DNA of 64,000 nt from Bacteroidota bacterium (GCA_016720655.1 JADKKE010000032.1:182383-246382), one strand, 5' to 3'. Shown: positions 13,779-32,600, numbered from the stretch's first letter. Numbers and translations: made by a program. The notes: generated by a model from the sequence alone, not told the origin.

Positions 13779-16123
13779 TCAAGATATATTTTGTTTTTTC
13801 CGGATGTCTTCGATGGAAAGAAGAATCACTTCGTTGGTTGCAGGCAAACTAAAATGTGGTTCATATTCGTGGTTTCCTACAGCCGAAATTGCGTCCTTAA
13901 TGGCAAGCCATGAGCTGAAAGCCAGCATCAGTGGCGGCTCCGCAACGGCCTTGCTTTTCCGGATTGCATTCGGGTTCGGTGCATTTTGCAACAACTGAAC
14001 TCTGAAATCTTCCGGGATGTCCTGAACAGAAGGTATTTTGTATGTATCCGGAGAATGATTCAGTAAATTACCTTTTGCATCCCATTTGATTTCTTCTGTC
14101 GTACACCAGCCCAAGCCCTGAATAAAACCACCTTCAACCTGACCAATATCAATTCCGACATTGATCGAATCACCAACATCGTGTAATATGTCTGTGCGAA
14201 GATTTTTTACATAACCGGTAAGCGTATCCACCAGCACTTCACTCACAGCCATTCCAAAGGAGTAATAATTAAATGGTTTTCCCCAGCCTTTTGTTTGTCC
14301 CAACCGATGTTCGGTGTCGCATAGAAACCGGTTGCGCTCAGACTCACTTGTTTTAAATTAGCGAGTAACATTGCTTCAGCAAAATGCATGTTCCGATCGG
14401 GAAAACTGAGATCTGTAATAATGTCATTCTCAATCACGATATCTATTTCCCTCGAAGGAAAGTCAGGATCGATTTTGCTAAATTCATCGCACATGAGTTT
14501 CACAATGCGTTCGCGAAGCTTATCGATCGCATTTTTCACAGCCATTCCGTTCAAATCTGTACCTGCGGATGCTGCTGTAGCAGAAGTGTTCGGAACTTTC
14601 GAAGTATTGGTTGCATTGACTTTAATCCTGTCAAGGCTAACACCCAATTCAGCTGCAGCAATCTGAGCGATTTTGGTGTTCAATCCCTGACCCATTTCCG
14701 TACCGCCGTGATTTACGAGAATGGTTCCGTCTTTATAAATATTAACCAGAGCACCAGCCTGGTTGAGAAAGGTTGTAGTAAAGGAAATTCCAAATTTTAC
14801 AGGCGTAAATGCAAGACCTTTTTTGTAAAACTCATTCTTTGCGTTGAATGTATTGACTTCAGTTCTGCGTTTTGAATATTCAGAAGAAGCAGAAAGTTGA
14901 TCATACAAAACATGCAACCTGTTCAGTTCGACTTCCTGTCCGTAATGGGTGATGTTGTCTTTATCAATTCCGTAAAAATTGGTTTTGCGTACCAATGCAG
15001 CATCAATTTTTAAAAAACGTGCAATCCTGTCGATCACAGCTTCCATTCCGGCCATTCCCTGTGGTCCGCCAAAACCTCTGAAAGCCGTATTGGACGGGAG
15101 ATTGGTACGATAGGCTTTGCCAATCACCTGCATGTTGGGAATGAAATAAGAATTGTCGGCATGCAACATGGCTCGCTCAAGGATTGCCATGCTTAGATCC
15201 GTTGCACATCCGGCATCTGCATTTTGTTCAAACTTCAGTGCTACTATTTTTCCCGATGCATCAAAACCCGCTTCGTATTTGATCAGATAGCGGTGACGTT
15301 TCCCTGTGATTTTCTGGTCATCATCACGAAACAATCGAATGCGTACCGGACGACCTGTTGCATTGGCAAGCAGTGCGGTCCATGCAGCAGTATGATTGGC
15401 TTGTGTTTCTTTTCCACCGAAAGCACCGCCCATGCGACGAATTTCCACAACGACTTCGTTTTTTGGAATACCGAGAACTTCTGCAACAATCGCCTGGGTT
15501 TCGGATGGATGCTGAGTAGATGAATAAATATTCATTTCACGGCCTTCACCGGGTACAGCCAGACAGGATTGTGTTTCAAGGTACCAGTGTTCCTGCGCTC
15601 CTGTTTCCAGTTCGCCCTTGATGGTGTGCGGAGAAGTAGCAAGCGCTGCGTCAGCATCCCCTCTTTGCATCGCGCGGGGAGGAGCAAGCAGTGTTCCTTT
15701 TTCTATAGCAGTGCGAATGTCAAGCACAGGTTCGAGTATTTCGTATTCGATGACAACAAGTCTTGCGGCAGCTCTTGCCAGTTCTTCGTTTTCTGCAGCG
15801 ATCAGTACAATTGCATGACCTACACAGAGCACTTCTTTTTCAGCCAGACAAGGTTCATCGTGAATCACCGGGCCCATTTGATTGTGACCGGGAATGTCTT
15901 TGGCTGTAATCACAGCATATACACCGGGAAGCTTTTTTGCTGCAGAAGTATCAATCGATTTGATGCGTGCATGCGCATGCGGACTATATAAAATATGTCC
16001 ATGCAGGAGTTGCTCATTCACGAGCATATCGTCGATGTATACCGACTCGCCACTTACATGTTTACTTGCGCTATCGTGAGGAATATTTGTCATGAAAGGT
16101 TTAGTACCCAAATGGGCGATCAA
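13779..16123 (-). pseudogene. xdhB: Xanthine dehydrogenase molybdopterin-binding subunit XdhB, interrupted by a 1-nt frameshift in a poly-A run (may be a homopolymer sequencing error)
   Basis: ORFs 14243-16123 (626 aa) and 13779-14303 (174 aa) are consecutive parts of one about 800-aa Mo-cofactor subunit. Adding one A at 14289-14292 yields ...NIGWDKQKGWGKPFNYYSFGMAVSEV, as in intact XdhB. Confidence 0.8.
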
Positions 16124-17562
16124 TGTTGATGGGTTTCATCCCAGAATTTCAATACAAGGTTTCTTGCTGCCAGTCTGCGGAACTCCGCGCCGGATCGGGC
16201 ATCTGAGAGAGGAGTGTATTCTGAATAGACAAACTCACCAGCTTTTTCAGCATTTTCTCTTGTCCATTTTTTACCGATCAGAAATGACTCCGCAGATGTA
16301 GCTCTTTTTGTCTTCTCGGCCATACCACCATAAGCAAGAATGGCCTCTGAGATTTCATCGTTTTTAAATTTCAAACTAAATCCACTGCTGACTGTGGAAA
16401 TATCCAGGTCTTTGCGTTTGGAAACTTTATAAGATGATATTATTGAATCTTTATTCATTTTAGGAATAATGACAGCTGAAATAATTTCATTCCCTTGTTT
16501 CTGTGTCTTTCGGTAACCGATCACAAATTCGTTCATCCGAATTTCTCTTTTGCCACTAAGGCTCTGAAGTTCGATGCGGGCATTGAGCGCCATCAGTACC
16601 GGGAGTGTATCTCCAATTGGAGAAGCGCTACCCAGATTTCCTCCTAATGTGGCCAGCGAACGGATCTGACGGGAGCCAAAAACTGCTAGCATTTTATACA
16701 ATGCAGGAAAAGTGTGCTCAGTATTTTCTTTCACTGCTTCCAGACTCATACCGGAACCGAACACCATTTCATTGCTCTTATCTTGTAATGTTTTCAGTCC
16801 GCTTACTGCCGACAAATCCAAAATTTTCGGCAAGACTTCATGTTTCTTGGTTACGCGTAAAGCCACATCTGTAGCACCTTGTATCAGCAATGCATCCGGA
16901 TGCTCAGAGAGTAATTTCAAAGCTTCCTGTATTGATGTTGGTTGAAAATAGCTTTGCTCAGAGGAAGTATGGGAGAGCGCATTATTTTCCGAATGTATTA
17001 GTTTCAGTTTCTGAATCACCTCATATTCCATTTTTGAAAAATGATCAGTGTTTCCCTGAGCGCAGGCAGAGGAGGCCGCTTCGATGATGGGTCTATAACC
17101 TGTACAACGGCAAAGGTTCCCGGTGAGGGCATCACGGATGTCGTCCTGACTTGCCTGTTTATTTTCTTTAAAGAGCGCAAACAGTGACATCACAAAACCG
17201 GGAGTACAGTAACCGCACTGACTGCCATTTTTATCAACCATTTCCTGCTGAACCGGGTGGAGTTTCTCATCAGCTTTCAGGTTTTCCACTGTGAGCAGTT
17301 GTTTCCCATGCAACATAGGCATGAATACCAAACAGGAATCGATAGCGGTGTATTTCAGTTTGTTTGTTTCCGCGATTTCAGCAATCACAACCGTACAAGC
17401 TCCACAGTCTCCTTCGGCGCAACCTTCCTTGGTTCCTTTGTGATCTGATGAATTCCGGAGATAATTCAACACAGTGGTAGTAGGGTGAATCCCATTTGTG
17501 CCAATGGAAACCCGTTTGATTTCGCCGTCCTGTATAAATACGATTTCTGAGTTTTCCTTCAT
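16120..17562 (-). CDS. xdhA: Xanthine dehydrogenase small subunit (2Fe-2S ferredoxin plus FAD-binding domains)
   Basis: GCAEGDCGACTV, CGYCTPGFVMS and NLCRCTGYRPI iron-sulfur motifs, then an FAD-binding domain (ATLGGNLGSASPIGD). 4-bp overlap with xdhB. Confidence 0.85.
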   Translation of the reverse strand: MKENSEIVFIQDGEIKRVSIGTNGIHPTTTVLNYLRNSSDHKGTKEGCAEGDCGACTVVIAEIAETNKLKYTAIDSCLVFMPMLHGKQLLTVENLKADEKLHPVQQEMVDKNGSQCGYCTPGFVMSLFALFKENKQASQDDIRDALTGNLCRCTGYRPIIEAASSACAQGNTDHFSKMEYEVIQKLKLIHSENNALSHTSSEQSYFQPTSIQEALKLLSEHPDALLIQGATDVALRVTKKHEVLPKILDLSAVSGLKTLQDKSNEMVFGSGMSLEAVKENTEHTFPALYKMLAVFGSRQIRSLATLGGNLGSASPIGDTLPVLMALNARIELQSLSGKREIRMNEFVIGYRKTQKQGNEIISAVIIPKMNKDSIISSYKVSKRKDLDISTVSSGFSLKFKNDEISEAILAYGGMAEKTKRATSAESFLIGKKWTRENAEKAGEFVYSEYTPLSDARSGAEFRRLAARNLVLKFWDETHQH

Positions 17563-17807
17563 AGTTTGGATTGCTTCAAATTTAAGGAAAGAAATGAGAA
17601 CAAATTGATTACAGAAGCGAATCTTTAAAACAAGGTATACATTTATGCTTTACCTTTATTGTATGTTAGCGGTAAGTCAAATTATACATTGCCATATTTT
17701 TAATTTTTGAATTTGTTTTTTCAAACAATGGATTCTCCCAGGCATCAGCCGGATTCAAAGCAGGTGGTGGCTTATTCAATATCAATTCCGCCTTAAAAAG
17801 TGAAGCA

Positions 17808-18260
17808 TTGCCTTCCTGGGAAGCAGGATTTTTTTCGGTGGCGGATATATCGGAACATGTTATTCTTCAACCGGAGATTGACTATTCTGACAAAGGAGGA
17901 AAGGTAACATTTGAAGACACTGTTTGTAATGTCCATCTTCAAAGTGCAAATGTTCGGATACTTGTTTCCTACCTTTTCAACGACAGATTTTCACTCGGTG
18001 CCGGTCCGTATTTTTCATACATGTTCAAAGCCAGTCAGAGTAAAGTGATTGTTCCTAAATCCTGGTATTCTCCTTTTGGAGTTGGTTTCAATGCCGCTGC
18101 ATCCGTCAACGCCGGACTCTGGATTTTTTCTGTTCGTTACGATCAAAGTCTGACACTCCTTACCCGCGACGGGGACGTAGAAATTTCAAAAAGTATTAAT
18201 CCTTTGAAATCCTCACATGTAAGTGGGTTCTCTTTGGTAGTGTGTGTGGGATTTGATTAA
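17808..18260 (+). CDS. Outer-membrane beta-barrel (OMP_b-brl-like) protein fragment. It begins at TTG with no signal peptide and is possibly 5'-truncated
   Basis: Alternating beta-strand pattern with aromatic-rich C-terminal strands. The same frame is open upstream (…AGFKAGGGLFNINSALK) but contains no Met or signal sequence. Confidence 0.3.
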   Translation: MPSWEAGFFSVADISEHVILQPEIDYSDKGGKVTFEDTVCNVHLQSANVRILVSYLFNDRFSLGAGPYFSYMFKASQSKVIVPKSWYSPFGVGFNAAASVNAGLWIFSVRYDQSLTLLTRDGDVEISKSINPLKSSHVSGFSLVVCVGFD

Positions 18261-18261
18261 A

Positions 18262-18390
18262 GGGGGGACGAGGGACGATGGGACGGGGGACGTTAGGCGA
18301 GAGCAATTGGCGGGATTCGAACATTGAACACGGAACCTTGAACACGGAACCCGGAACAACATTAAACCTTGAACTTTGAACCTTGAACTA
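18262..18390. repeat. Low-complexity intergenic repeat block: gggacg four times, gaacacggaac twice, ccttgaac three times
   Basis: gggggacgagggacgatgggacgggggacg...gaacattgaacacggaaccttgaacacggaacccggaac...aaccttgaactttgaaccttgaac. Confidence 0.8.
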
Positions 18391-18453
18391 TTTTTTCAAT
18401 CCATGAACATTATTTCAAAGTAGCATAGGGGTAAATCGTTTCTCAGTTGTCAT

Positions 18454-19071
18454 TTGAATACTAATGCTTTCGTAACTTGGCCCCGGAAAAGTAAAACGGT
18501 GGTCAACGAAGACACAAATATCTTACAGGCCTTAAAAAAAGGAGATGGAAAAGCCTATGAATCCTTATTCAGAAGCTATTACCAGCGACTTTGCAGCTAT
18601 GCCAATACATTATTGAATGACCCCGATGAATCCGAAGAAGTTGTACAACAGGTTTTTATTCAGGTTTGGGAAAGGAGGGAGGCGATGGAAATAAACATTT
18701 CTATTCAGGCCTACCTTTTTAAAGCTGTCCGAAATTCCTGTTTGAATAAATTGAAACACGGAAAAGTGCGGCAAATTTATGCGGAAGAAGTCACAGCTCT
18801 TGCCGGACAATCAGAACCTGCCAGTCAAATTACTTTGCAAAATGAATTGCAGGAACAAATCCATCGCGCCATTGAAAGTCTGCCTGAACAATGCCGGATC
18901 ATTTTCAAATTGAGTCGATTTGATGAACTAAAATACGCAGAGATTGCAGAACACCTTGGCATCTCAATTAAAACAGTAGAAAACCAAATGGGTAAAGCCT
19001 TGAAAGTAATGCGGGAGAAATTGAAGGACTATTTACCCTTACTCATATTTTTAATTTCATCATGCCTCTGA
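18454..19071 (+). CDS. RNA polymerase sigma-70 factor, ECF subfamily
   Basis: Region 2 (VQQVFIQVWERREAM) and region 4 HTH (ISIKTVENQMGKALKVMREKL). The next gene is FecR-like. Confidence 0.85.
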   Translation: MNTNAFVTWPRKSKTVVNEDTNILQALKKGDGKAYESLFRSYYQRLCSYANTLLNDPDESEEVVQQVFIQVWERREAMEINISIQAYLFKAVRNSCLNKLKHGKVRQIYAEEVTALAGQSEPASQITLQNELQEQIHRAIESLPEQCRIIFKLSRFDELKYAEIAEHLGISIKTVENQMGKALKVMREKLKDYLPLLIFLISSCL

Positions 19072-19075
19072 TCGC

Positions 19076-20081
19076 TTGAAAAACAAATTCGAAAATATCG
19101 AAGACCTGATAGCTAAATTCCTTGCAGGAGAAGCTAGTTCTGAGGAAATCCATATCCTTGAGGAGTGGAAGAATCTGCATGCCGATAATCTTCGGGAGTT
19201 TAATCAAATGAAGATGTTATTTACAGAAAGCGCGACATTGAAGCCCTTGCTTTCTGTGAATAGCGACAAAGCCTGGCTTGCAATTCAGCAAGCAATTCAA
19301 CTTGAGAAAGGAAGAGTGGTTCAGCTTCACAAACGAAGCAATTTGCAAACGGCACTAAGAATCGCAGCGATTTTCATTTTTATGGCAATGATTGGTGCGG
19401 TGATATATTTTATGACGAGTCCACTTGCCGGATCGGAACATGAAATTGCAACGGGTGATAGTATACAAAAAAAGTATGTTGCCGGATGGCAGCGAAATTA
19501 CATTTAATAAACACAGTTCAATTCAATATGCTTCAAATGCATATTCAAAAAAACGTGTTGTGAAATTAAAAGGCGAGGCTTTTTTTGACGTGAAACACAA
19601 TGAAACGGTTCCATTTATTGTTGAAGCAGGCGCACTTCAGATTCAGGATATCGGAACAGCTTTCAATGTGAAAGCACAGCAAAATTCCGGAATCATATTT
19701 GTTTCGGTTGTGTCCGGTGAGGTAAAAATAATAACTGCGGAAGATAAATCAATTCTACTTTCTGCCGGAGAAGCAGCATCCTATAATAGCGCAACCATGG
19801 AATTGAAAAAATCCGAAGAGATTGATAGAAACGCCTCTGCTTACAAGGATAAGATATTTATTTTTGAAAATGCAGAGTTAATCCACGTACTGAAAACCCT
19901 GAATGATATTTATTACTCAGACCTTCGAATAGGAGATGATAAAATTAGTTCATGTCGGATAACTGTTTCATTCAACAATGAGAAAATTGAAGATATCGCA
20001 GATGTCATTGCACTGACTTTAGGTCTCTCACTTCAAAAAAGTAATGGAACTATAACTTTTCATGGAGATGCATGCAAGTAA
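19076..20081 (+). pseudogene. FecR-family anti-sigma factor, split by a 1-nt frameshift in an A7 run
   Basis: ORFs 19076-19507 (N-terminal cytoplasmic part plus TM) and 19425-20081 (FecR domain LPDGSEITFNKHSSIQY...LKGEAFFDV...IGTAFNV). Adding one A at 19467-19473 gives ...GDSIQKKSMLPDGSEITF. Confidence 0.75.
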
Positions 20082-21883
20082 ATGTTCTTTGTATTTTCTG
20101 ATTCTTGCCCTGTTTTTGTTTTCCAATGAAATAAAAGCACAGATTCCTTTTCTGGAAAAGAAAATATCTGTGCAGGTCAGGAATTTACCTGTAGACGAAC
20201 TGTTGAAAATTATCTCTCAAAAAGGAGAGTTTACATTTTCTTATAGCACTCAATTAATACCGGAGTCAAAAACAGTTTCTGTACAAGTTCAAAATAAAAG
20301 TGTGCGTGAAATATTGGACCTTGTTTTTGAAGGAAAAGTGGCTTACAAGGAGAGAGGTAAACACATCATTCTACAAAAAGCTGAACTCTCAGCTCTTGGT
20401 AAGGAGCCTGAATACATCATTGTAAGCGGATATGTAAAGGATGCAACAAACGGCACCGAGGTTTCTCAGGTTAGTATTTTTGATAAACTCAGCAGGGTTT
20501 CAGCACTGAGTGATCAGTACGGATTTTTTACACTTAAAATAAAAATAAAGGATAAGTTCAGAGATGTGACCTTGTTTGTAAACAAAGAAAATTATCAGGA
20601 TACAATTGTGTATATTAATCAGAGCGGGCACTCTGTTCTTAATATAACAATGTATCCGGACGAGAAGATTGTGACCTACGTGGATTCATCTGCTATCCGG
20701 GATAGTATTTTTACAGTTAATCGACTGGCACTGGTGAACATGATATTAAGTGAGCAGGAGCAGGCCAATACGCGAAATATCAAAGATACATTGTATCGGA
20801 AGTTCCAGGTTTCATTCCTTCCCTATCTTGGTTCTAACCTGAAGTTGAGCGGAAATACTGTGAATGATTATTCATTGAATATTTTAGCGGGTTATTCAAT
20901 GGGAACAAAAAAACTGGAAATCGGAGGGCTGCTTAATCTTGATCGTGATTCAGTAAAGGTTGCGCAGATCGCCGGACTGATAAATATCACCGGAGGTCCT
21001 GTGCAAGGCGCTCAGGTTGCCGGTTTGATAAATTACAATCTGCGGCCTGTAAAATGTGTGCAGGTAGCCGGATTGGTCAATACGAATATGGATTCGGCCC
21101 GGGCGGTTTCCATAGCAGGATTACTCAATGTAAATCTCTCTCCCGCCAAAGGATTTCAAGTCGCAGGTCTTATGAATTTTAATCTGAAAACATCAAAAGT
21201 TGCGCAAGTAGCAGGCTTGATAAATGTCACCGCAAAGGGAATTCAGGGAGTACAGATTGCGGGTTTGATGAATGTTTGTCTGGATACGATTAAAGGCGGA
21301 CAAGTGGCCGGATTGTTAAACATTTCCAAAACAGTGATCGGATCCCAAGTTGGCTTTCTGAATATTTCAGATACATGTTCGGGAATTCCTGTCGGCTTTC
21401 TAAGTTTTGTCCGAAAAGGTCTGCATCAGTTGGAGATTTCTTCCAATGAGGTTTATCCACTCAACGTTTCTTTCCGTACCGGTGTACGACAATTCTACAA
21501 CATTTTCGAAGCGGGAATGCAATTCAAAACTCCGGAAGACCATACCTGGTATTTGGGTTATGGTGTGGGTACTGCCTTGTCGCTTAGTAATAATTGGCAA
21601 CTGGATTTTGATTTCACAATGAATCAACCGATCCGGGGCAATCGTTTCAATGAGTTTAATTCGTTAACAAAAATTAACATTGCAGCAGAGGAAAAAAATT
21701 GGGAAAGGATTTTCTATCGCTGCTGGACCAACATTAAATATATTATACGCAAATACTTCTGATCCTGACTACGAAGGCTATCTGAATCGTATTTCACCCG
21801 GAAGCTTTTCAAGTTCAAGTATTTCCGGGGATTACAAGCGAAGCATTTGGTTAGGTGCTAAAATAGGTTTGAGATTTTTCTAA
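20062..21883 (+). pseudogene. STN-domain outer-membrane protein with a CarboxypepD_reg-like domain, about 9 tandem approximately 20-aa AGL(I/M)N repeats and a C-terminal beta-barrel-type ending. It is split by a 1-nt indel in an A7 run
   Basis: Signal peptide, STN motif (ISVQVRNLPVDELLKIISQKGEFTFSY) and repeats VAQIAGLINITGGPVQGAQVAGLINYNL... The C-terminal piece (21680-21883) ends ...KIGLRFF. One fewer A at 21692-21698 gives ...AAEEKIGKGFSIAAGP. Confidence 0.5.
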
Positions 21884-21961
21884 AAAAATACTTCTTCACA
21901 TAGGGGTGATGCTGGTTTTGGTTGTCTTGAGTATATACAATAAAAGACAAATACCAACCCC

Positions 21962-22678
21962 ATGAAAACAATTAAAAATTCTTTCATCTTCGCAGCGGTA
22001 CTTCTACTTGTTGGAACATCCTGTAAAAAAGATTGGAATGGCGTTCGCGGTACTGGCGCTATCATTATTGAAAATCGTCCACTCTCCGGTTTTACAGGTG
22101 TGGATTATCACCTCGACGGTCGCGTGAACATTGTTCATGATTCAGCTTTCTATGTACTGGTTATTACGTATGCAAATTATCAACCCCTGATACATTTGCA
22201 TGTCGAGAATGGTAAATTGATTGTGGATTCCTATAAATCTTTGCGTGACGATGAAATCACATTAGAAATTCACATGCCTGTTCTGGAGTCAATGTATATG
22301 GCGGGATCTGGACGCATGTATACTTCCGGAATTTTTTCAAATGTAAGTTTAGTTGCACAAATGAGTGGCTCTGGTTCGATTGATTATTTTGGAAATGTTC
22401 AATCTGTCAACGCAAAGATCTCCGGTTCCGGAAATATCACCTTGAATGGTTCTGCACAGTCAGCAAAAATGACAATAAGTGGATCCGGAGACATTCATGC
22501 ATATGGAATGACGTGCGAAAGTAACGAGGCGACGATCAGTGGATCAGGGACGATTGAAACGACGACCAATATCTCTTTAACAGGAACTATTTCAGGAATC
22601 GGAACCATTCGTTACCGTGGTACCCCTACGGTTACTTCTCACATATCGGGTTCAGGACATATCGTACATCAGAACTGA
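21962..22678 (+). CDS. DUF2807 (GIN-domain, putative auto-transporter-adhesin-head-like) lipoprotein
   Basis: Lipoprotein signal (LLLVGTSC) followed by reiterated ISGSG(D/N/T)I beta-helical repeats, characteristic of DUF2807. Confidence 0.55.
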   Translation: MKTIKNSFIFAAVLLLVGTSCKKDWNGVRGTGAIIIENRPLSGFTGVDYHLDGRVNIVHDSAFYVLVITYANYQPLIHLHVENGKLIVDSYKSLRDDEITLEIHMPVLESMYMAGSGRMYTSGIFSNVSLVAQMSGSGSIDYFGNVQSVNAKISGSGNITLNGSAQSAKMTISGSGDIHAYGMTCESNEATISGSGTIETTTNISLTGTISGIGTIRYRGTPTVTSHISGSGHIVHQN

Positions 22679-22799
22679 ATCGAAAACATCCGTTTGCTTC
22701 CGTAGAAAAAAATCACGGTTGAATTAATCGCAAAAATAAAATCAAAAAACATTCACCAAGGGAAATCTCTTGCATGGTTTACCATTTTAAAACACTCAA

Positions 22800-25166
22800 A
22801 TGAAACTTCGCCCATCTCTCTTCCTATTTATATTTCTTTATCTGACAAATGTTCTCGCACTAAAAAGTCAATCACTCACGCAAACAGTTCGTGGAACCGT
22901 AGTTGATCAAATTTCACAGTCTCCACTTCCTGGCGCAAATGTTATTTTGCTGAATTCTGATCCTTTCAATGGAACAGCAACAGATATGGATGGCAATTTT
23001 AAACTGCAGAATATTCCTGTAGGTAAACAACATTTCAAAATTACTTTTCTAGGATACAAAGAATTCATTCTTCCAAATGTTACAGTGACTTCCGGGAAAG
23101 AAGAAGTCTTGACAATTTCACTGGAAGAAAATGTGATCCTTGGAAAAGAGGTAACCATTACTGATAAAATTGAAAAAAACAAACCCTTGAATGAATACAG
23201 CGCAGTGAGTGCTCGTACATTTTCGGTTGAAGAGACACAAAAATATGCAGCTGCAGTGAACGATCCCGCGCGTATGTCGACATCGTATGCCGGTGTTGTA
23301 TCGACAGATGATGGTAATAATGCAATTACGATCAGGGGCAATTCACCGAATGGTTTGTTGTGGAGAATGGAAGGCGTTGAAATTCCTAATCCGAATCACT
23401 TTAGTAATGTCGGCACAGCAGGAGGAGGAATTTCGATTCTGAGTTCGCAAGTTCTCACCAATTCCGATTTCATGACAGGAGCATTTCCTGCAGAGTATGG
23501 CAATGCACTTTCCGGAGTCTTTGATTTGAAGTTACGTCGGGGGAATAATCAGAAAAGCGAACAGACTATACAGGTTGGATTCCTTGGAACTGATCTCGCT
23601 GTGGAAGGCCCGTTTAAAAAAGGATACGATGGTTCCTATTTGGTGAATTACAGGTACTCAACACTTTCGATTCTTGGTAAACTCGGTGTGAATATCGGTA
23701 CAGCAACTACCAATTTTCAGGATCTCTCTTATAATTTCTACTTGCCTACTAAAAAATCAGGAACATTTACTTTATTCGGATTCGGCGGACTCAGTTCGCA
23801 GTTTGCCGATGCGGATAAAGACTCAACGAAATGGAACAGTTTCTATGATAAGTTCAATTGGGACTTTACATCCAATACAGGAGCCGCCGGACTGACCCAT
23901 TTTATTCAACTGAACAACAGGACATATTTGAAAACATCCCTTGTCGCATCCGGAACCGGTAAAACCTATAGTGAAGAGGAGCTGGATACAAACTATGAAG
24001 GCATTCCTCAAGGCGAGTTGAATTATGGTGAGAAAAAAGTAGCCTTGAATTCTATTCTTACGAGAAAGATTAATTCCAGGCATAGTTATAAAGCAGGAAT
24101 TATTGCTACAGAAATTTTCTATAATCTCTTAAACACAGAATTGGTAAAGGAAAGTGGTAGTATTGAAACCCGGATAAATGAAAAAGGTGAAACAATGACC
24201 CTTCAGTCATTTGCACAATGGAATTTCCGAGCAAGTGATAATGTAACGTTCAACGCCGGTTTGCATTACCTGGTTCTTACTTACAATAAAACGTTTTCTC
24301 TCGAGCCACGGGCTTCCATTAAGATTGAATTGAGTCCGAAGCAGTCGATTAGTTTAGGCTATGGATTGCATAGTCAGCTGCAACCGATTGGTGTGTATTT
24401 TGCAAAAAATAGAAATCCCGATGGATCAATCTTTCAACCAAACAAAGAGCTGGGACTTACAAAGGCGAACCACTATGTGCTGAGCTATGATCATTCCCTT
24501 TCGGATTTTTTACATTTTAAACTTGAAACATATTACCAGCAATTGTTTAATGTACCGGTGAGCATGGATCCAACGAGTACTTTTTCAATCCTGAATAGTG
24601 AAGGCGGATATACGAATGAAGCACTTGACAATAATGGTAAGGGTCGAAACTATGGAGTGGAATTAACATTCGAACAATTCCTGCATCATGATTTCTATTT
24701 TCTGCTCTCTTCTTCTGTTTTTGATTCAAAATATCGGGCAACAAATGGAAATTGGTACAATACACGTTTCAATGGAAATTTTGCAACGACATTTACTGCT
24801 GGAAAAGAAATTAAAACCGGACCAGGGTTTAAAAACCGTATTGTAGGAGTGAATATTAAAACGATTTATGCAGGTGGATTGAGAAATACTCCAATTGACC
24901 TGAATGAATCCAAACTTCAAGGGGAAACAGTTTACCAGGATGATGAAGCCTATTCACTGAAAGCGAAGGATTATTTCCGCACAGATGTGAAATTCAGTTT
25001 GCGCAGGAACAGACCTAAAAGTACTGTCACTTGGAGTATTGATATCCAGAATGTAAGTAATACAAAAAATATTTTCGGAGATTATTTTGATCCACTATCC
25101 GGTACAACGAAAACAAGCTATCAGGCTCCATTAATACCTATACTCAGTTACAAAATGGATTTTTAA
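22800..25166 (+). CDS. TonB-dependent receptor with N-terminal CarboxypepD_reg domain; no STN domain
   Basis: Signal peptide, TVRGTVVDQISQSPLPGANV carboxypeptidase-regulatory-like domain, plug motifs (ITIRGNSPNG...EGVE), a 788-aa barrel and a C-terminal aromatic residue (…YKMDF). Confidence 0.85.
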   Translation: MKLRPSLFLFIFLYLTNVLALKSQSLTQTVRGTVVDQISQSPLPGANVILLNSDPFNGTATDMDGNFKLQNIPVGKQHFKITFLGYKEFILPNVTVTSGKEEVLTISLEENVILGKEVTITDKIEKNKPLNEYSAVSARTFSVEETQKYAAAVNDPARMSTSYAGVVSTDDGNNAITIRGNSPNGLLWRMEGVEIPNPNHFSNVGTAGGGISILSSQVLTNSDFMTGAFPAEYGNALSGVFDLKLRRGNNQKSEQTIQVGFLGTDLAVEGPFKKGYDGSYLVNYRYSTLSILGKLGVNIGTATTNFQDLSYNFYLPTKKSGTFTLFGFGGLSSQFADADKDSTKWNSFYDKFNWDFTSNTGAAGLTHFIQLNNRTYLKTSLVASGTGKTYSEEELDTNYEGIPQGELNYGEKKVALNSILTRKINSRHSYKAGIIATEIFYNLLNTELVKESGSIETRINEKGETMTLQSFAQWNFRASDNVTFNAGLHYLVLTYNKTFSLEPRASIKIELSPKQSISLGYGLHSQLQPIGVYFAKNRNPDGSIFQPNKELGLTKANHYVLSYDHSLSDFLHFKLETYYQQLFNVPVSMDPTSTFSILNSEGGYTNEALDNNGKGRNYGVELTFEQFLHHDFYFLLSSSVFDSKYRATNGNWYNTRFNGNFATTFTAGKEIKTGPGFKNRIVGVNIKTIYAGGLRNTPIDLNESKLQGETVYQDDEAYSLKAKDYFRTDVKFSLRRNRPKSTVTWSIDIQNVSNTKNIFGDYFDPLSGTTKTSYQAPLIPILSYKMDF

Positions 25167-25169
25167 TAT

Positions 25170-25228
25170 TCACCTAATTTGGAGTAGGTGAATGTCGACC
25201 CTCTGCTGAAATTTGGCAGGGGGTTTTT
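25170..25228. terminator. Bidirectional rho-independent terminator pair between convergent genes
   Basis: Hairpins tcacctaatttggagtaggtga and ccctctgctgaaatttggcaggggg, followed by ttttt. Confidence 0.5.
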
Positions 25229-25254
25229 AGTGTCTTGATGAAAAAACATGCAAA

Positions 25255-26460
25255 CTATATTTTTACATTAAGGTGTTCAGATGCATTGTAACGGACCATA
25301 TCGTAAACAATTTTTACCCAAATCATTACGCATGGCAAAGCTTTTAGAGCATAGGGTTTCACATAAGTGACTCGTATGAATTTAGGGAAGAGATCGGTTG
25401 CTGAAAGCGAGGTCAGGATGAAAGCAAAAAGGAATAGGGCAAGATTGGTCCTTGAAAATGGAGAAGCAAAATACCAGATACAAATTCCAATCATTGCCAC
25501 AATAAAAGTTGGAGATTCGGCTTTGTGATTAAAAATAATAATCCAAATCAACACCGATGCGAGAGCAAAAATCCGAAACGTGAGTTCACGATAGTTTTTT
25601 CGAAACAAAAATGGCACAAGAAACAGTAAACATCCAGGTATTAGAACAAGGTTTTTATTGATATCAAGGTTGAACCAGGTATTGATAATGCCCACAACGG
25701 ATAAACTATAAGCGCTTTGATAATCGTTAGCTAACATATTCCCCCAGCTCTGATAGAGAAAAACCAGCTGTTGGAAACTAATGATCAGCAGTGGCAGACA
25801 GAAAAACACCATCATCCACAAGAATGAATAAAACACAGCTTTCATTTTATTCGGATAAAACAGGAATAACGCAATTCCTACGATTCCAAAAATTTTAATA
25901 TATACAGAAGCTATTATGCAAAAAGTTGCCAACAGCAGTTTGTCTTTTTCCATGAATGCAAAACTCAGAATCAGCAGTCCGGCCATCAGCGCGTTAGACT
26001 GAGAATTTTGCATCGATGTCATCAATTCAAAAATGCAAATCAATAGTGTGAGTCCTTTTTGTTTTAGATTTAGTTTTGGAAGAGAATAAACTGCAATACA
26101 CAGGATTAATGCATTGAGCAAATTCCACAAGGCTAACCCTATTGCATCCGGGAAGAATGCAAAAAAGCCCATAGCGAAAGAAAATGTAGGGCTGTATTTA
26201 TACAGGTCCCAATGTTCTTCCGGGTAGGATTTATAGATATCTTTATTAGAAGAAAGATGTTCAAATGAGTTTTTAAAAATGATGTAATTATTATAATGGG
26301 TGTACGTTTTTTGAACCTCAGGATAATACTCGCTCTTTTTGAGAATTGATTGTACTCCGGCACCGATTGCAAAGAATGAAAGGAGGAGTCCGACTAAAAA
26401 TGGTTTTGAAATGAATTTCTCGACTAAAAGATTCCAGCTGTTGGCAAAAGTGGCAGACAT
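25255..26460 (-). CDS. Polytopic membrane protein, DUF2029/GT87-like (putative lipid-linked glycosyltransferase)
   Basis: About 11 predicted TM helices over 401 aa. The fold assignment is by general similarity only. Confidence 0.35.
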   Translation of the reverse strand: MSATFANSWNLLVEKFISKPFLVGLLLSFFAIGAGVQSILKKSEYYPEVQKTYTHYNNYIIFKNSFEHLSSNKDIYKSYPEEHWDLYKYSPTFSFAMGFFAFFPDAIGLALWNLLNALILCIAVYSLPKLNLKQKGLTLLICIFELMTSMQNSQSNALMAGLLILSFAFMEKDKLLLATFCIIASVYIKIFGIVGIALFLFYPNKMKAVFYSFLWMMVFFCLPLLIISFQQLVFLYQSWGNMLANDYQSAYSLSVVGIINTWFNLDINKNLVLIPGCLLFLVPFLFRKNYRELTFRIFALASVLIWIIIFNHKAESPTFIVAMIGICIWYFASPFSRTNLALFLFAFILTSLSATDLFPKFIRVTYVKPYALKALPCVMIWVKIVYDMVRYNASEHLNVKI

Positions 26461-26627
26461 TTTCAGAAATTGACAGATAAGTGGGAAATTGATTGCTAAA
26501 AGTAGAAAATTACGGGGATTAAAGAAACCTTTACACTTTCGCTATTTATTTTGTGTTTAATGTTCCAAAATTAAAAAAGGGTTGTCTGAACATCAGACAA
26601 CCCTTTTGAATTAAAATAAGTTGATTT

Positions 26628-29600
26628 TTATTCTCGAATTAAAGTCAATCTTCCGGTTTCGATTGCATCACCACAAATAATTTTGAAGAGATATACACCA
26701 TCTGCATTTTCTTTTGCGTCCCATTTCACCAGATAAGTTTTGTCTTTTTCCATGGTTCCATCAAACAAGACTGCAACTTTCCTTCCATCCAGAGAGTAGA
26801 TTTCAATTCTGCCATTCTCAGAATCAAAATTATTTCGGAATTCAATTGTTGTGGTACTACTGAGTGGATTCGGGTAAGCAGTGACTACAAGTGCAGGCAA
26901 TGTTACTTTGTAAGTCTCACGAATGATTGTCCCTTCAGCATCTGTGATTTCAACTTCATATACACCTGGTGATGTTACATCAACCTCAGACGAAGTTTGT
27001 GAAGGGTCATTATTCCAAACGAAGGAATATGGAGCAATTCCTCCATCCACTTCTGCTGTGAGTGTCCGATCCTTTGGATTCAGTATCATCCTGCAATTTG
27101 ATCTGCATCTTGTTACTTGAACACAAGAAGTACTTGATCCGCATCCATTCGTGACTGTAACTGAATAGGAACCAGAGCAATTGACACTAATGCATCTATT
27201 GTGTGAACCATTACTCCATGTATATGAATAATTCGTACCGAGAGGAGCACACAGGGTGGTGGACTGACCAGAATTGTAACAGCGATTACCGGTGATAGTA
27301 CTTGAAGGACGTGAACCAGCTGCGATACAAATTGAAGAAGTGCTGCTGCATCCGCTACTGTTGGTTACAGTAACCGAGTAAGTTCCCGGACCATTGATAT
27401 TCAGGCAACGATTATGTGTTCCATTATTCCAGGTATAGGAATAACCTGTCCCACCGGCAACACATAAGGTTGAGCTTTGACCTGCACAAAGTGAAGCGGG
27501 CCCGGTAATGGTGCTGTTCGGTCTTGGATTGACAATAATCACTTTACTGCAAGTGCTTGAACAACCCGCTGAATTTGTCACGGTAACAGAATACGTTCCT
27601 CCGGTATTCACAGTAAGACAACGACCATGTGTACCATTGTTCCAGGTATAAGAGTAACCTGATCCGGCAGGAGCACACAAAGTAGCTGATTGTCCCTGGC
27701 AAATGGAATTGTTACTTCCGCATCCCGTTACAGATATGTTGCAAGATGGTCCAGCGCTTACATAAATTGTTTTGCTACATGTACTGCTACATCCACCAGC
27801 ATTCGTTACTGTAACACTGTATGTGCCGGCGGAAGTCACGGAAATACATTGTGTGCGCAATCCATTGCTCCACAGATAAGAATAGCCTTGTCCTGATGGT
27901 GCACACAACTGAACCGTTTGTCCCTGACAAATAGTGTTGTTGCTGCCACAACCGGTGGTGGTGATGTTGCAGGAAGGAATGGAACTTACATAAATGGTTT
28001 TGGTACATGTACTGCTGCAGCCACTGCTATTCGTTACTGTCAGCGTGTATGTTCCTGCTGCAGTAACACTGATGCACTGACTGTGCAGTCCGTTGCTCCA
28101 TGAATATGAATATCCATTTCCTGAAGGTCCGCACAACTGTACTGATCTGCCTTGACAAATAGTATTGTTGCTGCCACATCCCGTTGCTGTAATTGTGCAT
28201 GAAGGTGCCTGGCCAACTGAAATTGTTTTACTGCAAGTACTGCTACATCCGGTACCATTTGAAACTGTTACAGTGTAAGTTCCGGCCGTTGTTACGTTAA
28301 TGCATTGAGTATGCAATCCATTGCTCCAGTTATAAGTGTAACCGGAACCGGCAGGTGCACATAACTGAGCAGTTTGTCCCTGACAAATTGAATTATTATT
28401 CCCACAACCAGTAGCAGAAATTGTACAGGAAGGTACTGTCTTGCTACTAACTATTACATCAACCAAACTATCGCAATGCAGTGCAGTTGAATAGTTGTGT
28501 GAATAGGTTCCACCGGATGTGACCACTTGTCCCCATGGAAGAGTATAAGATCCACCCTGACAGAAAGAAGCAGTGCTTGATGTATGATAAGCAGCATTCA
28601 CGGTTATATTAATTGTAACGAGGCTATCACATCCTGCTTGCGAAGAATACGTGTGAGGATACGGGCCTGCACTTGTTGCTGTTCCGCCCCAAGGTAAAGA
28701 GTACGAACCACCCTGACAGATCGCATGTGATTCGGAAGTCGAATACGTTTGGTTTACGGTGATATTAATCGTTACCAAACTATCACATCCTGCCTGCGAA
28801 GAATATGTGTGTGGATACGGACCTGCACTTGTTGCTGTTCCGCCCCATGGCAATGGATACGAACCACCGTCACAAATCGCATGCGTTTCAGAAGTAGAAT
28901 ACGTTTGATTTACGGTGATATTAATCGTTACCAAACTATCACATCCTGCCTGCGAAGAATATGTGTGTGGATACGGACCTGCACTTGTTGCTGTTCCGCC
29001 CCAAGGTAAAGAGTACGAACCACCCTGACAGATCGCATGTGATTCGGAAGTCGAATACGTTTGGTTTACGGTGATATTAATCGTTACCAAACTATCACAT
29101 CCTGCCTGCGAAGAATACGTGTGAGGATACGGACCTGCACTTGTTGCTGTTCCTCCCCATGGCAATGGATACGAACCACCGTCACAAATCGCATGAGTTT
29201 CAGAAGTTCCACCGTCACAGATCGCATGTGTTTCTTAAGTTGAATATGTTTCCTTCACATCGTTATTGATCGCTTCCACACTATCACATCCTGCCTGTGT
29301 ACAGTTCGTGTGAGGATATGGACCGGCACTTGTTGCTGTTCCACCCCAAGGCAATGGATACGATCCACCGTCACAAATCGCATGTGTTTCAGAAGTAGAA
29401 TACGTTTGATTTACGGTGATATTAATCGTTACCAAACTATCACATCCTGCCTGCGAAGAATACGTGTGAGGATATGGACCTGCACTTGTTGCTGTTCCAC
29501 CCCAAGGCAATGGATACGATCCACCGTCACAAATTGCATGCGTTTCAGAAGTTGAATATGTTTGATTTACATCAATATTGATTGTTACCAAACTATCACA

Positions 29601-32600
29601 TCCTGCCTGCGAAGAATATGTGTGAGGATATGGACCTGCACTTGTTGCTGTTCCACCCCAAGGCAATGGATACGAACCACCGTCACAGATCGCATGCGTT
29701 TCTGAAGTTGAATATGTTTGATTTACATCAATATTGATTGTTACCAAACTATCACATCCTGCCTGCGAAGAATATGTGTGTGGATACGGACCTGCACTTG
29801 TTGCTGTTCCGCCCCAAGGCAATGGATACGATCCACCGTCACAAATCGCATGCGTTTCAGAAGTTGAATACGTTTGATTTACATCAATATTGATTGTTAC
29901 CAAACTATCACATCCTGCCTGCGAAGAATACGTGTGGGATATGGACCTGCACTTGTTGCTGTTCCACCCCATGGCAATAGATACGAACCACCCTGACAGA
30001 TCGCATGCGTTTCTGAAGTTGAATACGTTTGATTTACGGTGATATTAATCGTTACCAAACTATCACATCCTGCCTGCGAAGAATACTGTGAGGATATGGA
30101 CCGGCACTTGTTGCTGTTCCACCCCATGGCAATGGATACGAACCACCGTCACAGATCGCATGCGTTTCTGAAGTTGAATATGTTTGATTTACGGTGATAT
30201 TAATCGTTACCAAACTATCACATCCTGCCTGCGAAGAATACGTGTGAGGATACGGACCTGCACTTGTTGCTGTTCCGCCCCAAGGCAATGGATACGATCC
30301 ACCCTGACAGATCGCATGCGTTTCTGAAGTTGAATACGTTTGATTTACGGTGATATTAATCGTTACAAGACTATCACATCCTGCCTGCGAAGAATATGTG
30401 TGAGGATATGGACCGGCACTAGTTGCTGTTCCACCCCAAGGCAATGGATACGAACCACCGTCACAGATCGCATGCGTTTCTGAAGTTGAATATGTTTGAT
30501 TTATGGTGATATTAATCGTTACCAAACTATCACATCCTGCCTGCGAAGAATAAGTGTGAGGATATGGACCTGCACTAGTTGCTGTTCCTCCCCAAGGCAA
30601 TGGATACGATCCACCCTGACAGATCGCATCGTTTCTGAAGTTGAACACGTTGATTTACGGTGATATTAATCGTTAAGACTATCATCCTGCCTCGAATAAT
30701 GGCGGATGGACCGGCACTAGTTGCTGGTCCACCCAAGGCAATGGATACGAACCACCGTCACAGATCGCATGCGTTTCTGAAGTTGAATATGTTTGATTTA
30801 TGGTGATATTAATCGTTACCAAACTATCACATCCTGCCTGCGAAGAATACGTGTGAGGATACGGACCTGCACTTGTTGCTGTTCCTCCCCATGGCAATGG
30901 ATACGATCCACCGTCACAAATCGCATGTGTTTCAAGTAGAATACGTTTGATTTACGGTGATATTGATTGTTACCAAACTATCACATCCTGCCTACGAAGG
31001 ATACGTATGAGGGTATGGACCTGCACTGTGTGCTGTTCCACCCTAAGGCAATGGATACGATCCACCGTCACAAATCGCATGTGTTTCAGAAGTTGAATAT
31101 GTTTGATTTACATCAATATTGATTGTTACCAAACTATCACATCCTGCCTGCGAAGAATATGTGTGAGGATACGGACCGGCACTAGTTGCTGTTCCTCCCC
31201 ATGGCAATGGATACGATCCACCGTCACAAATCGCATGTGTTTCAGAAGTTGAATACGTTTGATTCACTACTAGTTCAGTTGTAATCGTACTGTCACAACC
31301 AGCTTGATTCGGAATATGAGTGACATACGTACCTGCTGTTGTCTGTGCTGTGCCCCCTGGTGGAGTATAACTTTGTCCAAGACAAATTGGAACAGTTGTA
31401 TTGCTGCTGCTGTTCGCGGTTGATAAAGTCACATAAGCGGTATCTCTTCCGATACAACCATTGAGAGGATTCGTTACTGTGAGAACATAGGTTCCGACAG
31501 CATTAACAGTTGGAGTCGCTGAATTTGGATTCAGGGAAATATTTCCATCTGTTGTCGTCCATGCAAATTGTGCATTTGCTGTGGTCGATGAACCATCCAG
31601 AGTTGTACTTCCGGCTACACAAAGGAATTGTTTATCCTGACCTGCATTTGCATTCACAACAGGTGGTTCAGAGATTGTAAAAATATTGCTCGCGGTACAA
31701 TTCCCGTTGTCTGTAACAGTCACTGTATAGGTTCCTGGTGCGAGACCCGATAGAGTTTGAGTATGATCTCCCGTATTCCAGTCATATGTGAATGGAGCAA
31801 CGCCATCTGAATGTGCAGTGATGGATCCATCGTGAGCGCCATTACAGGTAACATTGTTTACATCGGCGGTAACTGTTACAATTCTCACTGTAACCACCTG
31901 GTCAGCGGCACCGGCAAGAATACAGGCATCGCCACCAATGATCCGTCGGAAGAAAGTTTTTACATACAACTGGCCGATTGTGGCACCGGGAAGGTCTTGA
32001 GCATTGGCACCACTGATCGGATCCCAGTTTATACTGTCAGTACTAATCTGCCATTGATAGGTTGTAGCCGAAGGCAATGCAGGATAGGGAGAAGTAACAC
32101 CATGTCGAATAATCGTCGGCAGGACATACGCTGGAATGGAACCCGGTAAATCATCTGGGATAGTTCCCGCACAAATCGTCTGGTTACCCGTAATAGTATT
32201 TCCGAGCAGGTCAGGAGGATTTGCCCAAACAACTAAACCCGGTTCATATGGAGTAGTACTCACGCGAGTCGTATTGAGTGCACCTTGTGTAAGTGGAATG
32301 TTATTCGATTTGGAAGTAACAATTGTATAAATCCTGCAATTGTAAAATTTAATTCCTCTTTCTCCAACAGGATCATAATCATCACCGGCTCCACCATAAT
32401 ACGTACTGAACAAGAGTTCTGATAAGTCTGATTTTAATTTACAAAATATCTTATCATTGTTTCCAAGATTTGTTGTTTGCAATGGAACATTCGGGCTTGT
32501 TGTTACGGGAAAGTTGGTACTGTTGGTATATCCAAAAATATACACATCATTGTTCAAATCAGTATTCAATCCCATCATGTTCACTTCGTTTGCACTTCCT

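Follow-up and report, generated by a model that had tools for sequence, protein, structure and literature searches.

Which outer membrane protein passes the signal to a FecR-type anti-sigma factor when the TonB-dependent receptor encoded beside it has no STN domain? Pairs of extracytoplasmic function (ECF) sigma factors and FecR-type regulators are the most abundant signalling devices in Bacteroidota and are assumed to act through STN-bearing SusC-like transporters, and in canonical cell-surface signalling (CSS) the STN domain sits on the transporter itself. The question is raised by a locus at 18.4-25.2 kb of a 64,000-nucleotide stretch of DNA from a Bacteroidota bacterium (GCA_016720655.1 JADKKE010000032.1:182383-246382; the whole stretch is called the window). 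Here five + strand genes encode an ECF sigma factor, a FecR protein, an outer membrane protein with an STN domain (the STN protein), a DUF2807 protein and a TonB-dependent receptor (TBDR) that lacks one. On balance we favour the reading that the first three genes form a regulatory module of their own, whose outer membrane partner is a dedicated signalling protein and not a TonB-dependent transducer.

The locus and its sigma/anti-sigma pair

The features of the locus are as follows.

18426..18451, + strand: promoter motif P1 (TAGGGGTAAATCGTTTCTCAGTTGTC), the putative ECF sigma-dependent, autoregulated promoter of the sigma-fecR-stn operon
18454..19071, + strand: ECF sigma factor, Bacteroidetes FecI-like (TIGR02985 1.1e-54; Sigma70_r2; Sigma70_r4_2)
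19076..20081, + strand: FecR-type anti-sigma factor, 334 aa after frameshift repair (Pfam FecR 2.9e-15, FecR_C 1.6e-9)
20062..21883, + strand: outer membrane protein of predicted STN-NTE-beta-helix-8-strand-barrel architecture, 606 aa after repair (STN 1e-10; AlphaFold model)
21901..21926, + strand: promoter motif P2 (TAGGGGTGATGCTGGTTTTGGTTGTC), the putative sigma-dependent promoter of the DUF2807-TBDR unit, with motif and spacing as in P1
21962..22678, + strand: DUF2807 ('Toastrack'/GIN-type) beta-helical protein, a probable lipoprotein (PF10988 3.7e-34)
22800..25166, + strand: TonB-dependent receptor without STN, 788 aa (CarboxypepD_reg, TonB-box-like EVTIT, plug, 22-strand barrel)
25197..25225, + strand: terminator-like hairpin with 13 pairs and then a T-run, at the end of the DUF2807-TBDR unit (a pattern match from a consensus scan)

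The initial annotation had placed the system at 18454-25166, and the five genes do lie there; the unit itself is slightly longer and runs from the promoter motif at 18426 to the hairpin ending at 25225. The sigma and anti-sigma assignments were equally sound. The FecR protein has an N-terminal anti-sigma region, one transmembrane helix (the repaired frame holds the hydrophobic segment ALRIAAIFIFMAMIGAVIYFM) and periplasmic FecR and FecR_C domains, and the two genes thus have the make-up of an ECF sigma/FecR-type pair, namely a sigma factor with regions 2 and 4 followed by a FecR and FecR_C protein with a single membrane span. The end of fecR overlaps the start of the STN gene by about 14-20 nt.

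Architecture of the STN protein

The STN and CarboxypepD_reg domains had been assigned to a separate protein of roughly 600 residues with a beta-barrel-like C-terminus and no plug, and a domain search of the joined 20062-21883 product agrees: the 606-residue protein ends in ...GLRFF and matches STN and CarbopepD_reg_2 only, without a plug or TBDR barrel. The STN match (PF07660, E 1e-10, 41.6 bits against a cut-off of 28.4 bits, residues 57-106) is to the signalling domain of TonB-dependent transducers, and the corresponding part of the model has a PilQ N0-like fold match in Foldseek. The CarbopepD_reg_2 match (2e-5) falls under the Pfam cut-off and is backed by the model and by a PDB match to the N-terminal extension (NTE), which was the only match in a PDB sequence search with the STN family profile. 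Nothing in Pfam matched residues 240-606 at E<=10, Plug and TonB_dep_Rec included, and NCBIfam returned no match for the joined STN protein or the DUF2807 protein. Had the repeat body belonged to a known family unrelated to signalling, the signalling interpretation would have fallen; it matches no such family in either database.

The AlphaFold (AF2) model of the protein is confident (pLDDT 90.3) and, together with the sequence, divides the chain as follows.

Residues 1-26: signal peptide
Residues 30-108 (20149-20385): STN domain
Residues 118-200 (20413-20661): Ig-like NTE
Residues 201-244: short helical linker
Residues 245-450 (20794-21411): predicted beta-helix of 16-aa repeats
Residues 451-606 (21412-21883): predicted 8-stranded, OmpA-like barrel

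The initial annotation described the body as about nine repeats of 20 residues, which needs correction. The period is strictly 16 residues, with ten consecutive [AG]G[LF]xN motifs (residues ~281-445) at exact 16-residue spacing, the final step being 14. As the repeat region holds no tandem repeats at the DNA level, the protein repeats are ancient. In the model they form a beta-helix of about 11 rungs, roughly 5 nm long, and are built as a structural ladder of Gly, Gln and Asn residues. The C-terminal barrel has about eight strands, with OmpA, NspA, OprF-N and OmpW as its best structural matches; the autotransporter barrel 3aeh was matched only at a probability of 0.25. Foldseek against the PDB gave domain-level matches only (a transthyretin-like domain, small barrels, PilQ N0) and no whole-chain analogue, and a periplasmic beta-helix carried on an 8-stranded barrel would be a new combination of folds among outer membrane proteins.

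The orientation of the protein can be read from the same model. DSSP places eight long C-terminal strands joined by 4, 2, 7, 4, 8, 2 and 26 residues, and this alternation of short turns with longer loops points to a periplasmic N-terminus of the barrel, and hence to a periplasmic STN, NTE and whole beta-helix. Only about 45 residues are predicted to be exposed at the cell surface, all but the barrel lying in the periplasm. In an alignment of 93 homologues no conserved TonB box was found between the NTE and the beta-helix, the sequence 'DEKIVTY' after the NTE being confined to the closest relatives. A plug within a 22-stranded barrel appears neither in the Pfam search at E<=10 nor in the model. 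With its predicted 8-stranded barrel, no plug and no conserved TonB box, the STN carrier is therefore, as modelled, not a transporter.

Conservation and gene context

The family to which this protein belongs is large. With the full-length protein, over 2,300 of the candidates scored proved to be homologues, those with a name all being from Bacteroidota, and a HMMER search with residues 240-543 returned 4,541 clusters of 50% identity at E<=1e-3 and 1,188 at E<=1e-30. Most members have 580-700 residues and, in the homologues, a beta-helix of mostly 9-12 rungs. A minority of about 400-450 residues begins with a signal peptide of its own, after which the beta-helix and barrel come at once, without STN or NTE, which indicates that the beta-helix/barrel is an independent module onto which STN and NTE were fused. 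No Pfam or NCBIfam model exists for this module, and two thirds of the protein are covered by no profile model. Across the 93 homologues, mean identity to the window protein is 43% for STN, 54% for the beta-helix, 44% for the barrel and 19% for the signal peptide.

Gene context was compared in 80 loci of species-representative genomes, whose open reading frames (ORFs) were searched with the window proteins; the loci come from Cytophagales (Chryseolinea, Ohtaekwangia, Chryseosolibacter, Cyclobacteriaceae) and from many uncultured Bacteroidia. The fecR gene stands immediately upstream of the STN gene in all 80, usually with overlapping ORFs, and the orthologous sigma gene is present in 72/72 loci having enough upstream sequence. 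A TBDR orthologous to that of the window (E 1e-280 to 0) lies on the same strand within 3 kb downstream in 31 of the 67 loci with enough downstream sequence. In these loci the co-occurrence is universal for the triad and partial for the receptor. A search with a hidden Markov model of STN built from the family found no other STN protein, canonical STN-bearing SusC included, in the ~1.4 Mb of fetched loci and the window; the alternative that the same ECF/FecR pair is always followed elsewhere by a canonical STN-SusC is contradicted by the STN-beta-helix gene in 80/80 loci.

These data also bear on the proposal that the STN protein is a mere regulon member or a degenerate remnant, that is, a structural or adhesin-like outer membrane protein with a SusC N-terminus left as a vestige, FecR sensing by itself or by way of an unlinked transducer of the canonical kind. 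The beta-helix/barrel module does exist and persist without STN, its beta-helix fold resembles adhesin passengers, and the Pfam scores of CarbopepD_reg_2 and, in many homologues, of STN are weak. Against this, across the 93 homologues STN is as well conserved as the remainder of the protein, and in 80/80 loci its gene overlaps fecR or adjoins it within one operon. No canonical STN transducer is found in the ~1.4 Mb of flanking loci. Moreover, export of a passenger domain is not possible through an 8-stranded barrel whose N-terminus is periplasmic. We consider the proposal unlikely.

Downstream of the triad the order is more variable. The DUF2807 gene lies between the STN gene and the TBDR gene in the closest relatives and 3' of the TBDR in others, and the identical five-gene order recurs in independent assemblies. 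In four loci the slot between STN and TBDR genes is occupied by STN-less paralogues with a beta-helix and 8-strand barrel (L021 10164-11486, L081 6001-7335, L091 4025-5302, L092 3670-4989). This is the slot held by DUF2807 in the window, which suggests that interchangeable beta-helical envelope proteins accompany the TBDR. One further STN-less paralogue (P0212, locus L082) has no sigma or FecR gene nearby, so that STN tracks with FecR adjacency. In Ohtaekwangia koreensis the triad stands alone and is followed by convergent lipid-metabolism genes. The same genome holds, at L040 14932-16948 (- strand), a second ECF sigma gene followed by that of a 466-aa CarbopepD_reg_2 and TonB_C protein, a further case in which an NTE-type domain is unusually combined with machinery that spans the envelope.

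The DUF2807 protein and the STN-less receptor

The two remaining genes of the locus encode what had been recognised from the start as a DUF2807 beta-helical lipoprotein and a TonB-dependent receptor with CarboxypepD_reg and no STN. The former matches PF10988 over profile positions 2-181 of 181 (118.5 bits against a cut-off of 24.2 bits) and its signal sequence ends in the lipoprotein-like ...LLLVGTSC, a probable lipobox. An hhalign comparison of the STN family profile with the DUF2807 protein found no relationship (probability 0.1), and the two beta-helices are thus not detectably homologous.

For the receptor, Pfam gives CarbopepD_reg_2 at 4.8e-17 and Plug at 1.3e-3, the latter under the cut-off. 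Its homologues are named TonB-dependent receptor and are 57-84% identical among the top 120 matches, and several match PF00593 and PF07715. In the AF2 model the NTE is good and the barrel has about 22 strands, the plug being poorly predicted, and Foldseek confirms the TonB-dependent transporter fold by matches to PqqU, FemA, Fiu, SusC, BtuB and OprC at E~1e-15, with no clear best substrate class. A TonB-box-like EVTIT follows the NTE. The protein therefore has the NTE, TonB box, plug and 22-strand barrel of the SusC/RagA type, with low pLDDT in the plug region. Residues 112-250 (23133-23549), in this plug region, are the most conserved part of the alignment, with dense invariant columns, yet have pLDDT <50, which probably reflects a shallow, low-diversity alignment and not disorder.

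No SusD/RagB partner gene stands next to the TBDR or in the related loci examined, and the gene downstream in the window is that of a convergent GT87 glycosyltransferase. MlaE/MlaF(/MlaD) genes lie directly 3' of the TBDR in two loci only, and multicopper oxidase genes adjoin the module in a few related loci, in L083 together with DUF3347 and a CopA-like ATPase. The regions with Mla or multicopper oxidase neighbours are the following.

L083 10647-13181 and 14421-18370
L093 928-2444
L003 4472-6196
L004 835-5229
L095 245-1570

These genes are possible hints at a role in lipid or copper handling; as conserved associations they were rejected, since they occur in two loci or a few loci respectively and are not conserved across the family.

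A common putative promoter motif

Enrichment of k-mers upstream of the sigma genes yielded the motif ATAGGGGTAAA-N11-TTGTCATAACC, with the ECF-type consensus ATAGGGGTAAA-N11-TTGTC (also written ATAGGGGT-N14-TTGTC). Its layout is that of ECF promoters, with two blocks and a GTC-containing -10 element. For counts, the core GGGGT-N15-TGTC was searched in 1.26 Mb of loci, with the chance expectation taken from base composition: 111 sites were found against 5.9 expected, and only 14 are unassigned. In 66/72 loci the sigma gene has the core upstream of it at the corresponding position, and 30 of the 37 TBDR-adjacent loci have a second site after the STN stop and before the TBDR start. For the 45 sites that are not upstream of the cognate sigma gene, the gene that follows is a TBDR orthologue in 24 cases and a DUF2807 gene in 14; only 6, about the chance expectation, precede nothing recognisable.

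The 64-kb window contains exactly two matches, P1 and P2, the latter 36 nt upstream of the DUF2807 start codon. In locus L085 a TBDR orthologue has no sigma gene within 8 kb, yet the motif lies ~90 nt upstream of it, which suggests that genomes with the triad alone may keep the target elsewhere. The common motif, as a putative promoter, would connect DUF2807 and the STN-less TBDR with the sigma operon. A search for riboswitches and other RNA families (Rfam) in 17000-27000 gave none at E<=0.1. Directly 5' of P1, window 18261-18400 is low-complexity DNA with G-rich 7-mers (GGGACGA x4) and then GAAC-rich tandem repeats of 7 or 14 nt (GAACCTTGAACACG x2.4, AACCTTG x3.4), in which the recurring GAAC resembles generic ECF -35 elements.

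Integrity of the genes in the window

The initial annotation had joined the STN gene across a frame change and was right to do so: the frame of 20062-21762 continues in another frame to 21883 owing to a +1 frameshift in an A7 run (21692-21698), and removal of one A restores the 606-aa protein. It missed that fecR is split in the same way, into ORFs 19076-19507 and 19425-20081, by a +1 frameshift in the A7 run at 19467-19473; removing one A there gives the FecR protein of 334 aa with its single transmembrane helix. A comparison with L087, a 10.5-kb short-read metagenome contig that is 99.4% identical to the window and starts at window position 18417, shows that the window carries exactly three insertions of 1 bp, each within a run of A (18492, 19467 and about 21690-21692). 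The third of these to be recognised, at 18492, affects the 5' end of the sigma gene, whose true start is probably at about 18477-18500. L087 has these genes in unbroken form, with a FecR of 334 aa and an STN protein of 604 aa, and P0001, an intact STN protein with 19 member sequences, is 100% identical.

It could be argued that the locus is a decaying pseudogene cluster in the window organism, non-functional or locked 'on' by a truncated FecR, since all three insertions relative to L087 fall in the sigma-fecR-stn operon and none in the next 7 kb. Such decay is very unlikely. Each insertion is a homopolymer +1 error of a type also present in an unrelated gene of the window, the nearly identical L087 and the 19 members of P0001 are intact, and no further disabling mutations were found. 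The insertions are probably assembly errors and not pseudogenisation, as they are absent from L087 and as the window's xanthine dehydrogenase gene carries the same kind of error.

In that gene, at window ~14243-14300 (- strand), a homopolymer frameshift truncates the large subunit (...GENHLIITPLEWL* against the expected ...GKPFNYYSFGMAVSEV...). With several +1 frameshifts in A/T homopolymers in the window, other split ORFs there are suspect too. A very large, Cys/Ser/Thr-rich repetitive surface-type protein at 26628-34516 (- strand) is also split over several ORFs; it has ~52-aa repeats (PWGGTATSAGPYPHTYSSQAGCDSLVTINITVNQTYSTSE...) and ~75-aa repeats, and the DNA repeats, 84-94% identical, are assembly-prone.

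A proposed mechanism and its alternatives

The isolated STN domain of Pseudomonas Fox binds FoxR's C-terminal domain and protects FoxR from Prc-dependent proteolysis (PMC11637429). By analogy with FoxA/FoxR, direct binding between STN and FecR_C and regulated proteolysis could also operate here. The 8-stranded barrel would anchor the STN protein in the outer membrane, and the rigid periplasmic beta-helix, the linker, the NTE and the terminal STN domain would reach towards the inner membrane. There, STN could bind the STN-like C-terminal domain of FecR and shield FecR from periplasmic proteolysis, until a stimulus that loosens the contact leads to FecR degradation and frees the sigma factor. 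This stimulus would most likely be tied to the substrate or activity of the co-regulated TBDR or, alternatively, to a change in envelope state. The freed sigma factor would then transcribe from promoters of the ATAGGGGTAAA-N11-TTGTC type, namely that of its own operon (P1) and that of DUF2807 and the TBDR (P2). As activation of P1 would also make more of the STN protein, which acts as the clamp, negative feedback could result.

Several points weigh against this dedicated signalling module. A TBDR is adjacent in only 31/67 loci, and the genes that come after the triad in Ohtaekwangia koreensis are convergent and unrelated. The region between NTE and beta-helix has no conserved TonB box, and canonical TonB-driven movement of STN is therefore unavailable. 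Furthermore, the barrel topology is read from the secondary structure of a predicted model and not from coordinates, promoter function is deduced from conservation, and the STN-FecR contact is transferred from FoxA/FoxR.

The dedicated module could take two more specific forms. The first, which is the reading of the initial annotation, is a strict split transducer: the STN protein would dock on the STN-less TBDR, either barrel to barrel or with its beta-helix or NTE in contact with the periplasmic face of the TBDR or with TonB, and relay the substrate-loaded, TonB-engaged state to FecR. Substrate- and TonB-dependent signalling would thus be spread over two polypeptides. Consistent with this, 31/67 loci have the TBDR gene directly downstream and with the same promoter motif. 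An NTE domain is present in each of the two proteins, and conservation of the TBDR (57-65% identity) is unusually high, which would fit a specific substrate. Moreover, DUF2807 or STN-less beta-helix/barrel paralogues fill the slot between the two genes, which suggests that such proteins may work with the TBDR. On the other hand, about half of the loci have no adjacent TBDR, the STN protein has no conserved TonB box, contact between the two proteins is assumed, and the STN-less paralogue is also found without a TBDR nearby (L082). This form has a reasonable claim while falling short of an even chance.

In the second form, the stalk anchored in the outer membrane and FecR would together make a trans-periplasmic bridge that is broken by changes in inter-membrane distance, outer membrane integrity or peptidoglycan, the TBDR and Toastrack proteins being outputs and not the source of the signal. 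The dependence of RcsF-IgaA on the size of the periplasm offers a parallel. In favour of this form, the topology is predicted to lie wholly in the periplasm, surface loops being minimal and a TonB box missing, and the Gly/Gln/Asn ladder varies moderately in its number of rungs, mostly 9-12. In addition, DUF2807, which is co-regulated, is one of the 'Toastrack' domains, a group tied to the PSP/Lia systems of envelope stress (bioRxiv 10.1101/2020.09.24.301986), and a precedent exists in Bacteroides, where Dma anti-sigma factors couple an 8-stranded outer membrane barrel to an anti-sigma domain (PMC10927553). The main member of the regulon, however, is a TonB-dependent transporter of high conservation, a target more typical of control that responds to nutrients, and Mla genes are neighbours in two loci only. 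Such an envelope-state sensor is possible but doubtful, and within the general model of a dedicated signalling protein the split transducer is weighted slightly above it.

Under either form, the idea of a split or alternative cell-surface signalling architecture holds in so far as the signal protein is distinct from the transporter, given the synteny in 80/80 loci and the common motif. That it senses at the cell surface is doubtful, with about 45 surface residues predicted.

Comparison with known systems

TonB-dependent transducers such as FecA/FecR/FecI, FoxA/FoxR/FoxI and the SusC-like proteins of Bacteroides (PMC9249621, PMC11637429, PMC2709373) share with the locus an ECF sigma factor and a FecR-type anti-sigma factor with FecR_C, an outer membrane STN protein encoded in the same locus, a TBDR as regulated gene and apparent autoregulation. 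They differ in that the STN carrier of the window, as predicted, has no TonB box, plug or 22-strand barrel and so cannot transport, and would expose almost nothing at the cell surface, while the transporter has no STN. The order of domains also differs, since the NTE precedes STN in SusC transducers (Gray et al., PMC7782687) and STN precedes the NTE in the window protein.

The nearest precedents are, functionally, VreA and, conceptually, Dma of Bacteroides, which the system most resembles. VreA of the Pseudomonas aeruginosa PUMA3 system (VreAIR) is a non-transporter STN receptor and the one CSS receptor described without a transporter (PMC2729926). Like the STN protein, it is a CSS 'receptor' with STN and no barrel transporter, encoded with an ECF sigma factor and a FecR-like regulator, and its stimulus is not established. 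VreA is, however, small (~23 kDa), mostly soluble in the periplasm and equipped with a TonB/TolA-like C-terminal domain, whereas the window protein has 606 residues, no TonB_C match and a predicted outer membrane anchor, with NTE, beta-helix and barrel. The two systems further differ in phylum, gene order and regulon (two-partner secretion (TPS) and virulence genes for VreA; TBDR and Toastrack here), and the proteins have no sequence relationship beyond STN.

Dma (PMC10927553) is likewise specific to Bacteroidota and links an 8-stranded outer membrane barrel across the periplasm to an anti-sigma domain controlling an ECF sigma factor. In Dma, barrel and anti-sigma domain are one polypeptide with a disordered linker, whereas here they are two proteins, presumably joined by a non-covalent STN-FecR_C contact: the barrel protein, which starts with a cleavable signal peptide, contains no anti-sigma domain, and FecR is encoded by a separate gene. 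The spacer is a predicted folded beta-helix and Ig domain, and the sigma factor is FecI-like where that of Dma belongs to ECF21. Just upstream of the sigma gene lies a short ORF (window 17808-18260, +) whose match to OMP_b-brl_2 is confined to the C-terminal two thirds of that family of 8-stranded outer membrane proteins, which is also the Pfam family of the Dma barrel; the ORF may be a truncated or frameshifted gene of a small outer membrane protein.

A type Va autotransporter was ruled out, as the barrel has about 8 strands and not 12 and the beta-helix is predicted to be periplasmic. Compared with the autotransporter and TPS passengers Ag43, TibA, EtpA and HMW1 and with the antifreeze protein MpAFP, the window protein carries a periplasmic STN and NTE at its N-terminus and has a 16-aa repeat (GxQxAGLxN); there is no sequence similarity to any of these (4-13% identity).

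Significance for signalling in Bacteroidota

A full-text literature search found no paper describing the STN-beta-helix family, the NCBI product name occurring once, in an expression table. The architecture is not unique to the window, being widespread in Bacteroidota. The family is well defined by comparative genomics and experimentally uncharacterised.

If the dedicated module exists as proposed, at least 4,500 clusters of this family would represent an STN-FecR interface uncoupled from transport and from TonB, which would provide a natural test of the proposal that STN domains protect anti-sigma factors from proteolysis. The predicted regulon and its promoter motif could, in that case, be used for the genome-wide annotation of targets. 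A bolder idea, held only tentatively, is that throughout the phylum a rigid periplasmic stalk presents STN to FecR without TonB, as a bridge or ruler that senses spacing, outer membrane state or a ligand and controls TBDRs and Toastrack lipoproteins. Were this true, STN would be a general 'anti-sigma clamp' that evolution has moved from transporters to a dedicated sensor scaffold.

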